Positions 8,393 through 13,006 of a DNA stretch of 27,463 bases are shown piece after piece. Every line of letters starts with the position of its first letter. Position 1 is the stretch's first letter. Below the pieces are notes generated by a model, which did no database searches, was not told the origin of the DNA, and worked only from the letters and a program-made list of their open reading frames with translations. The position numbers and the translations under genes are program-made. Origin of the DNA: Thermoplasmatota archaeon (GTDB taxonomy: Archaea; Thermoplasmatota; E2; JACPAO01; JAHFTW01); contig JANQNI010000073.1 in the NCBI GenBank assembly GCA_028289805.1, positions 1 to 27,463 on the forward strand, written 5' to 3'.

Positions 8393-8976
8393 GCGACGAA
8401 CCGACCCCCGCCACCACCGTGGAGCAGGCGGACGCCGACATCCCGGAGTACGACCCCGAAGCGCACGCGGACGTGCCCAAGATCCCCATCGTCGTGGAGG
8501 AGCAGCAGGAGGGCATCGTCCTGACGGTCCTCTCCAAGGCCATCAACTGGGGCCGCAGCAACAGCCTCTGGCCCTTCGGCTTCGGCCTGGCCTGCTGCGC
8601 CATCGAGATGATCTCCACGGTGGCAACCCCCAACCACGACATGAGCCGCTTCGGCAGCGAGGTCATGCGCGCCTCGCCCCGGCAGTGCGACCTCATCATC
8701 GTCCCCGGCACCGTCACCAAGAAGATGGCGCCCCGCATCAAGAACCTCTGGGAGCAGATGGCGGAGCCGAAGTACGCCATCGCCATGGGTGCCTGCGCCA
8801 TCAACGGCGGCCCCTACCAGGACTCCTACTTCGTCGTCAAGGGCGTGGACAAGATCATCCCCGTCGACGTCTACATCCCCGGCTGCCCGCCGCGGCCCGA
8901 GGCGCTGCTGGACGGCCTCCAGAAGCTGCAGCAGAAGATCCGCGACCAGAACGACACCCTGGAGTTGGGCTTTTGA
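8389..8976 (+). CDS. nuoB: NADH-quinone oxidoreductase subunit B
   Basis: [47 protein letters not shown] (cluster N2 ligands). Confidence 0.97.
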
Positions 8977-9524
8977 GCGACGCTGAAGCCACGCTGGCAC
9001 CCACCGGCGACCACGCCGTCCTCGCCGAGGCGTGCCCCGACGAGGTCACCGGCTACGCCCAGACCGAGGACGGTCACGGCATCACCGAGGTCCGCCCAGA
9101 CGGCCTGTTCACCGTCGCCCGGCACGTGAAGAAGCTGGGCTACCGCATCCTGAGTTGCCTGTCCGCCTACGACACCAAGAAGATGGGCAGCGGCGTCTTC
9201 TACGCCTTCGTCAAGCCCGCCGCCTACCCCGAGGAGTTCGGGGACCTGCGGCTTCGCGTCCCCCTCACCTTCGAGGAAGAGGGCAAGGAGGTGCAGGTGC
9301 AGAGCCTCTGCGACGTCTTCCCGGCCGCCGGCTGGCACGAGCGCGAGATGTACGACATGTACGGCGTCCGGTTCGAGGGCAACCCCGACCCGCGCCGCAT
9401 CTTCCTGCCCGACGACTGGAAGGGCTTCCCCATGAGGTTGGACGACAAGCAGCCCGAGCAGTTCGTCGCCATGCGCGACGGCGAGGACGTGACCGTGCAG
9501 ACCCAAGAGGAGGGGTCGTGGTGA
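8973..9524 (+). CDS. nuoC: NADH-quinone oxidoreductase subunit C
   Basis: [43 protein letters not shown]. Start at TTG 8973, overlapping the nuoB stop (TTGA), with GGAG upstream. Confidence 0.92.
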
Positions 9525-9594
9525 GCGCAGCGAACCACGGCCTGGATTCCTGCATGAGCGGGAGCGAAATGCTGGAGGAGGGGTCCTGGTGAGC
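9507..9594 (+). repeat. Intercistronic element 1: 20-bp direct repeat (68-bp period) enclosing a 23-aa mini-ORF at 9521-9592
   Basis: GAGGAGGGGTC(G/C)TGGTGAGC at 9507-9526 and 9575-9594. Mini-[26 protein letters not shown] has GTGA overlaps with both nuoC and nuoD. Confidence 0.8.
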
Positions 9595-10797
9595 ATCGAC
9601 TACGCCGCCGCCGTCCCCCCCACCTACGACGCCCCCAGCGTCGTCGGGATGCACAAGGTCGACGACCGGCACCTGATGGAGCTCAACATGGGCCCCCAGC
9701 ACCCGTCGACCCACGGCGTGCTGCGCCTGAAGCTCCTGCTCGACGGCGAGATCGTCGAGAGCGTCGAGCCCATCATCGGCTACCTGCACCGCGGCAGCGA
9801 GAAGCTGGCCGAGGGCATGAACTGGACCAAGTTCATCCCGCTGACGGACCGCATGGACTACCTCTCGGCCATGAACAACAACCACGGCTACGTCCTGGCC
9901 GTGGAGGAACTCCTGGGCGGACCGGACGCGGGCGTCGTCTCCGAGCGCGGCGAACACCTGCGCGTCTTCGCCGCCGAGATGAGCCGCCTGGCCAGCCACC
10001 TCCTGTGGATGGGCACCTTCTTCATGGACCTGGGCGCCATCACGCCCATCTTCTACGCCCTGCGGGAGCGCGAGACGGTCCTCGGGTTCCTGGAGGAGCT
10101 GTGCGGCGCCCGGCTGACCTTCAACTACATGCGCATCGGGGGCGTCAAGTACGACCTGCCCGACGACCCCACGTACCTGCCCCGCGTGCGGGAGTTCATC
10201 AGCAACTTCCCGGCGCAGGTGGACGAGTTCGAGCGCCTGCTGAAGCAGAACGACATCATCGTCGCCCGCCTCAACGGCACCGGCCCCCTGAGCCGCCAGG
10301 ACGCCCTCGACTGGGGCGTCACCGGCCCCATGCTGCGCGCCACCGGCATCGCCCACGACCTGCGCAAGGTGTCCCCCTACAGCATCTACCCCAGCCTCGA
10401 CTTCGACGTGCCCACCACGACCCAGAGTGACTGCTACGGTCGCCTCATGGTCCGCTGGGCCGAGATGGTCCAGACCTGCCGCATCCTGGAGCAGGTCATC
10501 GACCGCCTCATGAACAAGCAGCTCGACGGCCTGCACCTCAACCCCGCCTACGCCGGCGGCAAGATGCTGCGCATCAAGGCCAAGGGCGAGGCCTACGCCC
10601 GCATCGAGCAGCCCAAGGGCGAGTACGGCGTCCACGTCATCGGCGACGGTGGCCTCAAGCCGGCCCGCGTGCACGTGCGCGCGCCCAGCTTCGCCAATTT
10701 GCAGGTCCTTCCCCTGATGGCGCGCGGCCAGAAAATCGCCGACTTGATCGCCAGCCTGGGAAGCATCGACATCGTCCTGGGGGACGTGGACCGCTAG
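9589..10797 (+). CDS. nuoD: NADH-quinone oxidoreductase subunit D
   Basis: LNMGPQHPSTHGVLRL, IGYLHRGSEK, DRMDYLS, RLASHLLW, GPMLRATG, ASLGSIDIVLGDVDR. Confidence 0.97.
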   Translation: MSIDYAAAVPPTYDAPSVVGMHKVDDRHLMELNMGPQHPSTHGVLRLKLLLDGEIVESVEPIIGYLHRGSEKLAEGMNWTKFIPLTDRMDYLSAMNNNHGYVLAVEELLGGPDAGVVSERGEHLRVFAAEMSRLASHLLWMGTFFMDLGAITPIFYALRERETVLGFLEELCGARLTFNYMRIGGVKYDLPDDPTYLPRVREFISNFPAQVDEFERLLKQNDIIVARLNGTGPLSRQDALDWGVTGPMLRATGIAHDLRKVSPYSIYPSLDFDVPTTTQSDCYGRLMVRWAEMVQTCRILEQVIDRLMNKQLDGLHLNPAYAGGKMLRIKAKGEAYARIEQPKGEYGVHVIGDGGLKPARVHVRAPSFANLQVLPLMARGQKIADLIASLGSIDIVLGDVDR

Positions 10798-10813
10798 GAG
10801 ACAGGAGGATTCC

Positions 10814-11866
10814 ATGGCTACACTCACCGACTTCTTCGACTCCGTCCTGCCCGGCACCCCCGGCTGGGTCGACAGCACCGTCGCCGCCCTCGTGGGCAGC
10901 CTCATCGTCTTCACGGTCGTGCTGTCCATCGGCGGCCTGTTCACCTTCGCCTTCCGGCGCATCTTCGCCCGCATGGGCCGCCGCCAGGGCCCCAACCGCG
11001 TCGGCCCCGCCGGCATCCTCCAGTTCGTCGCCGACGGCATCAAGCTGATCTCCAAGGAGGACATCCGGCCCGCCAAGGCCGACCGCCTCGCCTGGGGCCT
11101 CGCCGTCTACGTTGCCGTCACCTTCACGGTCCTCGCCTGGGCGCCCCTGCCCTGGAGCGACCAGATCTTCTTCAGCAACGTCGGCACCGGCGTCCTGTTC
11201 ATCCTCGCCGCCAGCGCCATCGCTCCCCTTGCGGAGATGATGGCCGGCTGGGGCAGCAACAACAAGTACAGCCTCTTCGGCGGCGTGCGCGCCGCGGCCC
11301 TGGACGTCAGCTACGAGATTCCGCTCATCTTCGCCGTGGCCAGCGTCATCCTGATGGTCGGCACCCTGGACACCCAGAGCATCGTCACCTCGCAGGCGGG
11401 CCTCTGGTTCATCGTGCCCCAGATCGTCGGCTTCGTCATCTTCTTCATCACCGGCCTGGCCAAGGCCGGCCTGGTCCCCACCGACCTGGCCGAGTCCGAG
11501 TCGGAACTGGTGGCCGGCTTCACGACGGAGTACTCCGGCATGCGCTTCGGGTTCTTCTTCGTCGTCATCTTCAGCAACGTCTTCTTCCTCGCCGCCCTGA
11601 TTACCATGCTGTACCTGGGCGGCTGGCAGGCACCCTTCGGCACGCTCGTCCCCGTCCTCCAGGGCTTCCTGGGGCCGTTCACGGGCGTCTTCTGGTTCCT
11701 GACCAAGGCGCTGCTGATGTGCTTCGTCATCTTCTGGATCTGGACCACGCTCCCGCGGGTCCGGGTGGACACCTACCTCAACGTCGCGTGGAAAGTCATG
11801 CTCCCCATCAGCATCCTGAACTTCGTTGGCACCGCCGTCCTCGTCAAGCTGGGGGTGGTGGGCTGA
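10814..11866 (+). CDS. nuoH: NADH-quinone oxidoreductase subunit H
   Basis: RRIFARMGRRQGPNRVGP.G.LQ..ADGIKL..KE, SYEIP, DLAESESELVAGFTTEYSG, PRVRVD. SD GGAGGA upstream. Confidence 0.96.
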   Translation: MATLTDFFDSVLPGTPGWVDSTVAALVGSLIVFTVVLSIGGLFTFAFRRIFARMGRRQGPNRVGPAGILQFVADGIKLISKEDIRPAKADRLAWGLAVYVAVTFTVLAWAPLPWSDQIFFSNVGTGVLFILAASAIAPLAEMMAGWGSNNKYSLFGGVRAAALDVSYEIPLIFAVASVILMVGTLDTQSIVTSQAGLWFIVPQIVGFVIFFITGLAKAGLVPTDLAESESELVAGFTTEYSGMRFGFFFVVIFSNVFFLAALITMLYLGGWQAPFGTLVPVLQGFLGPFTGVFWFLTKALLMCFVIFWIWTTLPRVRVDTYLNVAWKVMLPISILNFVGTAVLVKLGVVG

Positions 11867-12294
11867 TGAAGGTCCCCATCGCACCCATCCTGCAAGGCAT
11901 GGGCGTCACCCTCAGCAACTTCGTCAAGAAGCCGGTGACGGTCGCCTACCCCGAGCAGAAGCAACCGGTGGCCGACCGCTTCCGCGGCCGCATCTACCTC
12001 AAGCTGGAGACCTGCATCGGCTGCACCCTCTGCGCCCAGGCCTGCCCCAACGGCTCGTGCTACATGGTCGACTACGACCCCGGCTTCGAGACGCCGCAGA
12101 ACAAGCGCCAGAAATTCCCCGCCGTCGAGATCAGCAAGTGCATGTACTGCTCGCTGTGCGAGGAGGCGTGCCCCACCGACAGCATCCGCATGGGCAAGGA
12201 GTACGAGACCGGCGCCTACGTCCGGGACTTCGACTACAAGCCCGACCGCCTGAGCCAGAACGAGGCCGCACTCGGAAGGGGGCCGTACAAGTGA
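11866..12294 (+). CDS. nuoI: NADH-quinone oxidoreductase subunit I (2x[4Fe-4S])
   Basis: TVAYPEQK...RFRGRI, CIGCTLCAQACP and CMYCSLCEEACP. TGATG overlap with nuoH. Confidence 0.96.
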   Translation: MKVPIAPILQGMGVTLSNFVKKPVTVAYPEQKQPVADRFRGRIYLKLETCIGCTLCAQACPNGSCYMVDYDPGFETPQNKRQKFPAVEISKCMYCSLCEEACPTDSIRMGKEYETGAYVRDFDYKPDRLSQNEAALGRGPYK

Positions 12295-12554
12295 TCGGAG
12301 ACCAGATCGCCTTCGCCATCATCTCGTTGATGATCCTCGCCGGCGGCCTGTTCGCCGTCACCGCCAAGCGCACCTTCCACAGCGCCATGGGCCTCGGCCT
12401 CGCCCTCGTGGGCGTCGCCGCCGTGTTCATCCAGCTGGGCAGCCCCCTCGTGGGTGTCCTGCAGGTGCTCGTGTACGTGGGCGGCATCCTGACCCTGTTC
12501 GTCTTCGCCGTGATGTTCGTGGCCGGGGACGAGGAAGACGTGGAGGTGTTCTGA
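12291..12554 (+). CDS. nuoJ: NADH-quinone oxidoreductase subunit J, N-terminal part (J1)
   Basis: FHSAMGLGLAL...LQVLVYVGGILTLFVFAVM. GTG start overlapping the nuoI stop; 87 aa. Confidence 0.9.
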   Translation: MIGDQIAFAIISLMILAGGLFAVTAKRTFHSAMGLGLALVGVAAVFIQLGSPLVGVLQVLVYVGGILTLFVFAVMFVAGDEEDVEVF

Positions 12555-12637
12555 TGAGCGAAACGCGAAGCAGAACGCCTGAGCGAAGCGAGGGACCCTC
12601 CGGGGCTCCCCGAGCCCCGGACGGGGAGGTGTTCTGA
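12542..12637 (+). repeat. Intercistronic element 2: 13-bp direct repeat (83-bp period) enclosing a 27-aa mini-ORF at 12554-12637 and a 10-bp GC hairpin
   Basis: GGAGGTGTTCTGA at 12542-12554 and 12625-12637. Mini-ORF MSETRSRTPERSEGPSGAPRAPDGEVF*. Stem TCCGGGGCTC-CCC-GAGCCCCGGA at 12599-12621. Confidence 0.82.
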
Positions 12638-13006
12638 ATGGACAAGCGCATCGCGGCCGCCGTCGCCTTCGTCGCCTTCGGCACCATCGCCATCGCCGTC
12701 ACCCAGACCGCCCCCTGGTACGAGGAGGGCGTCGGCGGCGCCGAGACCTACGACGCCATCGTCCAGGACCTCTTCACCGACCACGTCATCGCCCTCGAGG
12801 TGCTCGGCGTCCTGCTGACGGCCGCCATGATCGGCGCCCTCGTCGTCGCCCGCCCCCTCACCGGCGGCGCCGACACCGCCAACTACCCCAAGGCGGACGA
12901 CGAGGACCTGGAGAAGGCCCGCGGCGTCAGCGACGTGGCCGCCACCCTGGGCGCGCCCGTGCCCGTCAGCCAACTGCTCCCGCCCGCGGAGGACGAGGAG
13001 GAATAG
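12638..13006 (+). CDS. nuoJ: NADH-quinone oxidoreductase subunit J, C-terminal part (J2)
   Basis: LFTDHVIALEVLGVLLTAAMIGALVVAR matches the NuoJ C-terminal LF..Y...FE...LLL.AMIGA motif. SD GGAGGTG upstream. Confidence 0.88.
   Translation: MDKRIAAAVAFVAFGTIAIAVTQTAPWYEEGVGGAETYDAIVQDLFTDHVIALEVLGVLLTAAMIGALVVARPLTGGADTANYPKADDEDLEKARGVSDVAATLGAPVPVSQLLPPAEDEEE

Follow-up and report, generated by a model that had tools for sequence, protein, structure and literature searches.

How does a short segment, bounded by two copies of a gene junction and carrying a small reading frame of its own, come to lie between two genes whose stop and start codons overlap in relatives, and how is it tolerated in an operon? 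The entry of MIRU-type repeats into coupled operons without breaking them is known from mycobacteria and is poorly understood. The junction between nuoC and nuoD in a Thermoplasmatota archaeon raises the same question in useful circumstances, since filled and empty sites are found within one genus and two junctions of an essential respiratory operon were struck independently.

We analysed the whole 27,463-nt contig (JANQNI010000073.1 of assembly GCA_028289805.1), hereafter the window. It is contig C351 of a fragmented metagenome-assembled genome (MAG) of 1.73 Mb in 379 contigs, with 70.6% GC; we call this genome G000, its same-genus relatives G001 and G002, and its taxonomic family f1. Its nearest public relatives are entries for Thermoplasmatota archaeon, whose NuoD is 87-88% identical. 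The window holds an 11-gene complex I operon, nuoA-B-C-D-H-I-J1-J2-K-L-M-N, from which nuoEFG are absent. On the forward strand nuoC (30-kDa subunit, 8973-9524, start codon uncertain; Pfam Complex1_30kDa, E 2.6e-31) encodes a product ending in QTQEEGSW, with its TGA stop at 9522-9524, and nuoD (49-kDa subunit, 9589-10797; Pfam Complex1_49kDa, E 1.7e-88) has an N-terminus that aligns with those of relatives. The source run is a coral metagenome, and a Logan contig assembled independently from it matches positions 9000-12758 at 100% identity, spanning the insert, so errors of binning or assembly in the MAG do not account for it. At the contig level, the locus shows a single unit and no polymorphism.

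The nuoC/nuoD junction is duplicated around an inverse copy of itself

The insert comprises 68 nt on the GTGA stop/start overlap of nuoC and nuoD and can be placed equally at 9527-9594 or 9507-9574, since its ends are repeated. An initial annotation, made from the letters of this DNA, had described a 20-nt repeat with a period of 68, and this is what we find: GAGGAGGGGTC(G/C)TGGTGAGC stands at 9507-9526 and again at 9575-9594, with 19 of 20 positions matching. The parts follow in the order target copy (R1), loop, inverse target copy (R'), loop, target copy (R2), and the 48 nt that separate the two repeats are unlike either flank. R1 (9507-9526, direct repeat D18) is the native junction, present as a single copy in relatives (loci L001, L002/L010, L030 and L031), and contains the Shine-Dalgarno (SD) sequence GAGGAGG, the last nuoC codons, the TGA stop and the former GTG start of nuoD. 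R2 (9575-9594) is the second copy of the junction found in relatives and brings the SD and the GTG start of nuoD (9589), together with the stop of the small reading frame. R' (9534-9555) is predicted to pair with R1 or with R2, depending on the fold.

The same annotation had pointed to two motifs of the form TGAGCG..AGCGAA, at 9522-9534 and 9555-9568, and to the lack of a strong hairpin. The motifs are there (two, where shuffled versions of the window give an expectation of 0.04), but the second statement was wrong, as both are loops of predicted hairpins, of nine and eight pairs respectively. Hairpin 1 has its 5' arm at 9514-9522, in the nuoC codons for G-S-W, its loop at 9523-9533 (GAGCGCAGCGA, an 11-mer with a GCGNAGC core inside GA..GA) and its 3' arm at 9534-9542, in R'; one of its nine pairs is G-T, and its stem joins the last 9 nt of nuoC to their inverse copy. 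The remainder of R' has diverged and also supplies the 5' arm of hairpin 2 (9548-9555). The loop of this second hairpin (9556-9567) is GAGCGGGAGCGA, of the GCGNNAGC form, and the identical 12-mer occupies the equivalent position in elements of contig C189; its 3' arm (9569-9576) reaches into the SD of R2, and one of the eight pairs is T-T. The single mismatch between the repeats lies at 9518, which is G in R1 and C in R2 and in relatives. The change is synonymous, and the G pairs with C at 9538 in R', a pattern that reads as compensatory and would keep hairpin 1 paired.

GCGNAGC and GCGNNAGC mini-hairpins, with any N, combine extreme stability with resistance to 3' exonucleases and a capacity to pause polymerases (Hirao and co-workers; PMC13037366). 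Both loop cores fit these published forms, with GCGCAGC at 9525-9531 and GCGGGAGC at 9558-9565, a sequence match rather than a folding result, as nearest-neighbour folding does not model mini-hairpins and standard parameters fail for them (PMC13037366). For the element as RNA, the centroid fold pairs R1 with R'. In the minimum free energy fold (-41.5 kcal/mol, z -2.3) the partner of R' is R2 instead, and the SD and the start of nuoD would be occluded.

A number of known structures were considered for these elements and set aside. There is no Rfam match at the window elements or at ten loci of relatives. The series TGATGA...CUGA in the element at the nuoJ1/nuoJ2 junction, which recalls a C/D box sRNA, is a coincidence of stop codons. 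By inspection, the loop has tandem GA and lacks the 3-nt bulge of a K-turn or K-loop for L7Ae. Removal of 68 nt restores the junction, as splicing of an archaeal bulge-helix-bulge intron would, but R1 and R2 have the same sequence and are not complements of each other, and the flanks of the exons, also by inspection, cannot pair. An intrinsic terminator would need a T-run, of which there is none in 9300-9800, and nuoD follows directly downstream. Lastly, a classical MITE derived from a DDE element is at odds with termini that are not shared among copies and with a duplication that varies from 13 to 25 nt instead of being fixed.

Empty sites and repeated insertion at nuo junctions

Comparison of nuoC/nuoD junctions across relatives, as the initial annotation had proposed, yields empty sites with one junction copy (...GAGGAGGGATCCTGGTGAGC...) in G001 (L002/L010), in G002 (L001) and in several other genera; in these loci, as in L030 and L031, the nuoC stop overlaps the GTG of nuoD. 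The single junction of relatives tells us that TGAGC, with which the loop begins, stood at the end of the native target before any insertion. A marine-metagenome contig of about 90% identity aligns continuously through the insert, and since G001 and G002 are empty, the insert is common to close relatives of G000 and not to the whole genus. In another genus, G021 has a nuoC/nuoD insert of its own, whose first parts are a variant of the loop, GAGCGACGCGA, and the G021 junction copied in inverse; the site is empty in G014, of the same genus as G021.

A sister element lies at the nuoJ1/nuoJ2 junction (12542-12637, forward strand). The likeness of design that the initial annotation saw between the two is real: a 13-nt junction is duplicated with a period of 83 and encloses loop, inverse copy and loop, here followed by an extra GC hairpin, with a reading frame of 27 codons running through the element. 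This element folds strongly (z -4.85). The corresponding site of G001 (L002/L010) is empty and shows an ATGA overlap without insert, so nuoJ was split ancestrally and the element is not the cause of its division. Three distinct inserts are found at this junction, in the window, in G002 and in G009, and in each of them the duplicated junction and the inverse copy match the junction sequence of that very lineage. A single ancestral insert would require concerted change in three segments per lineage, and separate insertions that copy their target are far more economical. By these comparisons, the C/D and J1/J2 junctions were targeted independently in other genera. Both have empty counterparts in relatives, where the repeat is single, and among single units the length of the target duplication varies between 13 and 25 nt (20 nt at nuoC/nuoD).

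A family of hairpins with a constant loop and variable stems

The loop is far more widespread than the two nuo junctions. GAGCG-N(0-2)-AGCGA occurs 55 times in the genome, the loop form of the elements being GAGCG-N(1-2)-AGCGA, and TGAGCGNAGCGA has 18 copies genome-wide against 3 for a reversed control. At the 46 sites with one N, whose flanks give an unbiased test, a stem score of at least 7 is reached at 24 (52%), compared with 1.5% of 20,000 random positions (P ~4e-32). A generic census is not helpful here, as perfect 8-bp stems are not commoner than in a shuffled genome, and only the test anchored on the loop is informative. We also aligned 21 hairpins, picked for having stems. In this alignment 79.8% of stem cells are paired, against 53.8% after shuffling (none of 500 shuffles reached the observed value) and 35-46% with the partner shifted along; each of the ten stem pairs shows changes in both arms and covaries, and no stem position is conserved. 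The loop behaves in the opposite way: 10 of its 11 positions are invariant in the 21 hairpins, and GAGCGNAGCGA, with the GCGNAGC core, is invariant in about 30 hairpins of the genome whose stems all differ. The N at the one-N sites is C in 20, A in 16, G in 6 and T in 4, and varies even among adjacent units of one array. Around the loops no base exceeds about 50%, so that only the 11-12-nt loops are common to members. The GA..GA flanks could stack as tandem sheared pairs.

Chance tandem duplication by slippage, with the likeness to the nuoJ motif a coincidence, might be imagined for the nuoC/nuoD insert given that only 20 nt are repeated in a genome of 70.6% GC. It leaves the 48 intervening nucleotides without a source in either flank, and it is scarcely tenable in view of the motif statistics, of a family spread through the genome, of stems that covary and of insertions that recurred independently. 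The initial annotation had preferred a dispersed family to random duplication, and the excess of motif copies, the stems flanking them and the empty sites bear this out. It was also right about the shared core; what changes is the nature of the motif, which is a hairpin loop whose stems are copied from the target.

Members of the family are built on a common plan with variations. Many include a direct repeat of the gene end, and some loci are arrays of two to four units (C268, C189, L042, L043). The period of the element is 2 mod 3 in about 15 of 27 loci, a bias that is only moderate outside intercistronic cases. In a subset, the inverse copy is followed by a second module, made of GGGAGCGA, then the hairpin GCCGYGC-TTG-CGCGGC, then TGGCGAC. 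The sites of this module in G000 are C189:1226-1400, C216:680-800, C287:7286-7330 and 8683-8740, C114, C160 and C240; the module, with TGGCGAC(AGG) as its end, is also found with other mini-hairpin loops, for instance GCGCGAAGCGC after a TAA stop. Even at loci whose R1 and R2 do not differ, the inverse copy can be imperfect (8 of 10 pairs in L045). This imperfection does not date the insertion, since coding or SD requirements constrain R1 and R2 alike.

A covariance model of stem plus loop matches in 20 of 24 f1 genomes, with 2-17 matches each as lower bounds. The motif for which the initial annotation advised a scan stands above background in the genome. The model also matches one f3 genome and G033 of f6; no matches came from f2, f4, f5, f7 and f8 among the genomes searched. 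A plain count of the 11-mer over the phylum is uninformative, as the reversed control is just as frequent in high-GC genomes and some lineages have the 11-mer within other repeats or within coding repeats.

A relay frame that probably couples the genes on either side

The reading frame that runs through the nuoC/nuoD insert has 23 codons (9521-9592). As the initial annotation had it, the frame starts with GTG, shares a GTGA overlap with each neighbour (9521-9524 and 9589-9592) and ends in EEGSW exactly like NuoC: it opens at the old start in R1 (GTG at 9521) and closes with a TGA at 9590-9592, overlapping by 4 nt the nuoD start at 9589. Frames of this kind are a rule of the family between genes. 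In seven of seven independent intercistronic inserts (C/D and J1/J2 in the window, J1/J2 in G002 and G009, C/D in G021, L045 in G001 and L042 in G012, the last with two units), the old R1 start opens 22-34 codons that stop between -4 and +1 nt from the R2 start. The chance of such a frame in a random insert of 70% GC is ~0.215, or ~2e-5 for all seven. All that the relay peptides have in common is S-A-A-N or a similar start, the translation of the loop; beyond this they are unrelated.

It is conceivable that the 23 residues form a real micro-protein, either a small accessory subunit of complex I or the true N-terminus of NuoD, as the frame is open, preceded by an SD, and GC-rich at third positions in 20 of 23 codons, like the genes of this genome. 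Yet the frame is absent altogether from same-genus relatives, differs from the nuoD frame, and encodes a peptide that has in common with those of other sites nothing but its S-A-A-N start; relatives of NuoD, for their part, align from 9589. We regard a micro-protein as very unlikely; the refuting cases named in the initial annotation, a conserved subunit or a misplaced NuoD start, find no counterpart in relatives. Since a relay frame occurs in all seven intercistronic insertions, the 23-codon frame is most likely a coupling device and not a protein. Leaving aside how it arose, we consider it probable that the nuoC/nuoD insert is a 68-nt non-coding member of a lineage-specific hairpin family, through which translation is relayed.

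How the operon tolerates the insert can be put in similar terms, with somewhat less assurance but still as the likelier course. The duplicated junction would return an SD and a GTG to nuoD. With a period of 68 nt (2 mod 3), the old start would open the relay frame, to finish after 23 codons on the new GTGA. Ribosomes leaving nuoC, or initiating at R1, would translate through the structure, and in so doing would melt the R'-R2 pairing that may otherwise mask the nuoD start, and then re-initiate there. Whatever the mechanism, relay frames and duplicated starts will mislead gene callers, resulting in false small genes and misplaced starts.

This arrangement has a counterpart in bacteria. MIRU inserts contain a small frame that is coupled at both its start and its stop (-4 nt) with the neighbouring genes of an operon, and translation downstream is kept (PMC12548453). 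The nuoC/nuoD insert resembles them as a short operon insert with a 23-codon frame coupled to both neighbours by GTGA overlaps; the arrays of two to four units at other loci may also correspond to the tandem copy-number variation of MIRUs. MIRUs are bacterial units, conserved over their whole length and not described as copying their target into a hairpin stem. Here, in contrast, conservation does not extend over the full length: only the 11-12-nt loop is common to copies, and stem and flanking repeat come from the target.

Position of the hairpins and a possible signal function

With gene ends called by local frame tests, a stop of a protein gene on the sense strand lies within -20 to +5 of the loop at 16 sites, against none for antisense gene ends. 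In 10 of the 16 the stop is at exactly -1, where a T before the loop and the GA of the loop make a TGA. The 13 motif sites inside coding sequence are mostly stemless; both window sites are counted among them, since nuoD is directly downstream. A family hairpin also stands 0-5 nt past the 3' end of three tRNA genes of G000, for Lys-TTT, Gly-CCC and Leu-TAG (hairpins at C122:2082-2122 in L072, C371:7998-8038 and C108:2805-2845 in L081). There the 5' arm is the 3' strand of the acceptor and T arm, and the 3' arm its inverse copy; the loop of the tRNA-Leu copy, one of the three, is antisense. G001 has a matching tRNA-end hairpin at L047. At C311:617-657 of G000, a family hairpin lies just 5' of a gene start with the SD (TCCAGGAGG) in its 3' arm, and may occlude initiation.

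That the loop is invariant points to selection of some kind, and a factor may read it, as an RNA signal or as an undescribed nuclease. The hairpins could accordingly be functional RNA or single-stranded DNA signals in the first place, recognised as loop-closed stems by a lineage-specific factor, their loop being kept constant by selection and not by mobility. They would mark or protect transcript 3' ends at stops and tRNA ends, and the nuo copy would set a processing or stability boundary between nuoABC and nuoD-N. The strictly sense orientation at protein-gene ends (16 to 0) fits such a role; so do the covarying stems, the compensatory G at 9518, the resistance of mini-hairpins to 3' exonucleases (PMC13037366), and the fixation of ten loop positions while N varies between neighbours in an array, which looks like purifying selection. 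Several observations fit less well: one tRNA-end copy is antisense, and the competition of stems at these ends with acceptor and T arms looks like a burden more than an advantage; a T-run terminator and an Rfam family are both absent; and a target preference for TGAGC would give the same sense bias. Above all, selection alone cannot generate a 68-nt insert with target duplication, so a generating mechanism is required in any case. We see a signal function as a substantial possibility, though one we lean against as the primary account, and it is compatible with the membership in a hairpin family that we prefer. If a factor does read the loop, the family defines a cis-signal of a new kind for stop codons and tRNA ends in archaea.

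Origin of the insertions

The family could also consist of ordinary non-autonomous elements (MITE, REP or PATE-like) mobilised in trans by an enzyme that recognises the loop, such as an HUH or undescribed nuclease. HUH nick sites present a conserved loop on variable stems, and the constant loop on variable stems of this family resembles them. Native targets carry TGAGC or TGAGCGC (in the window and its relatives, L045, L042 and C116), suggesting a site preference, and insertion recurs at identical junctions. A mover of this kind, for which the initial annotation suggested searching, did not turn up: Y1_Tnp (HUH, PF01797) is in 0 of 24 f1 genomes, G000 included, and was detected only in the hairpin-free f4, with control genomes giving a signal; of the 24 f1 genomes one has RVT_1 and none has Cas1, TnpB and rve are in 0 of 5 genomes, and DDE_Tnp_1 is sporadic. 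These genomes are MAGs, in which a mobility gene could be unassembled or of an undescribed family. G006, 94% complete in 10 contigs, is without these mobility genes and yet has at least 14 hairpins. Moreover, conserved terminal inverted repeats are absent, the target duplication is long and variable (13-25 nt in single units), and the stems are derived from the target, a product that no transposase known to us yields. Mobilisation in trans thus appears unlikely.

REP elements provide the closest comparison of this kind, and their stems are conserved within a genome that also has a RAYT (Y1 HUH) gene. Like REPs and REPINs, the hairpins of f1 are short, extragenic and dispersed, often lie just past gene ends and sometimes form arrays; they differ in that their stems are all different under a constant loop and that Y1_Tnp was not found. 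The repetitive hairpins of organelles (double-hairpin elements, sponge RHE, yeast GC clusters) are mitochondrial, with conserved arms and no known mover. They are alike in being small GC-rich hairpin inserts in spacers and gene ends of compact genomes; we know of no report of target-derived stems among them.

A different precedent does without a mobility gene. Insertions with long target duplication (Furuta 2010) have variable repeats of more than 30 bp around a kilobase restriction-modification cargo, and their targets are often gene 3' ends or tRNA genes (PMC2853133). The f1 hairpins share with them the empty site with one copy, the variable length of the target repeats, the failure to find a mobility gene and the choice of gene ends and tRNA genes as targets. 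They differ in having a hairpin cargo of 48-120 nt and repeats of 13-25 nt, as well as an internal inverse copy of the target and a conserved loop, both of which are lacking in those cases.

The long and variable duplication without a mobility gene, the direct-inverse-direct layout, and the pausing and extension properties of mini-hairpins lead us to favour host replication or repair over a transposase as the maker of the insert, a tentative preference, to which we give less than even odds. In such an event, a 3' end bearing an ultra-stable mini-hairpin loop would snap back and copy the target in inverse, and the copying end would then switch back to the template upstream, leaving the junction duplicated. 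If so, genomes would have a route to de novo 3'-end hairpins and intercistronic structures. Mini-hairpins occur at single-strand replication origins, and a stable hairpin on a 3' overhang is extended by Pol theta (PMC13037366).

Transposase-free events in which a 3' end folds on a short hairpin include Pol theta end joining, tandem inversion duplication and origin-dependent inverted-repeat amplification. The snap-back insertions and inverted triplications they leave have the same direct-inverse-direct arrangement of local sequence. They use local quasi-palindromes and leave no family-wide conserved loop, whereas here the loop is conserved throughout the family. Archaea, as far as we are aware, lack Pol theta. 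Snap-back copying also leaves unexplained the source, at each new site, of the conserved 11-mer with its non-complementary GA..GA flanks, and the extra GC-rich hairpins and GGGAGCGA modules of many copies.

A more specific scheme, which we hold with slightly more doubt again, is the writing of hairpins without a transposase: a mini-hairpin would be joined to a DNA 3' end at TGA(GC), fold back, prime an inverse copy of the terminal 10-25 nt of the gene, and be resolved with target duplication. Were this true, each event, whether at a stop codon, at a tRNA end or in an operon, would give the constant loop a fresh stem particular to that site, and the family would be a new class of self-templating insertion. 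The mini-hairpin itself is a structural motif and not a genetic element, and in this family it bears additional GA..GA flanks, probably as tandem sheared pairs; the review of these structures (PMC13037366) does not describe it as the unvarying tip of hairpins that are dispersed and derive from their targets. It is this combination, a constant mini-hairpin loop with a target-copied stem, that makes the signature unusual.

Other features of the nuo operon and other hairpin repeats

Some further observations were made along the way. The nuoB/nuoC junction (window 8968-8985) is native, TTTTGAGCGACGC with a TTGA overlap, as in several relatives. It holds TGAGCGA and is nevertheless free of insert, so that TGAGCGA alone is insufficient for insertion. 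NuoC of genus g5 and its neighbours has a variable N-terminal extension of ~20-60 residues, rich in Ala, Pro and Lys, which genus g1 is without (the region lies at nuoB/nuoC in L013-L016, L018, L020, L021, L023, L024 and L031).

The nuo operon of genus g5 has also been repeatedly invaded, at the nuoC/D, nuoD/H and nuoI/J1 junctions, by a second and different family of hairpins (L015, L019, L020, L024, L033), with long conserved arms of CACGAA-like repeats (AACCACGAATTCCACGAA...) and an SD and ATG of their own. Finally, in f29, another family of Thermoplasmatota (L063, at G086:C100:1-1300, L065 and L066) the 11-mer lies inside a repeat with conserved flanks (..CCTGTCCTG / CCCGGGACGGGAC..), and two copies of this repeat enclose a 1.1-kb segment with open reading frames, possibly a different mobile element that uses the 11-mer loop.
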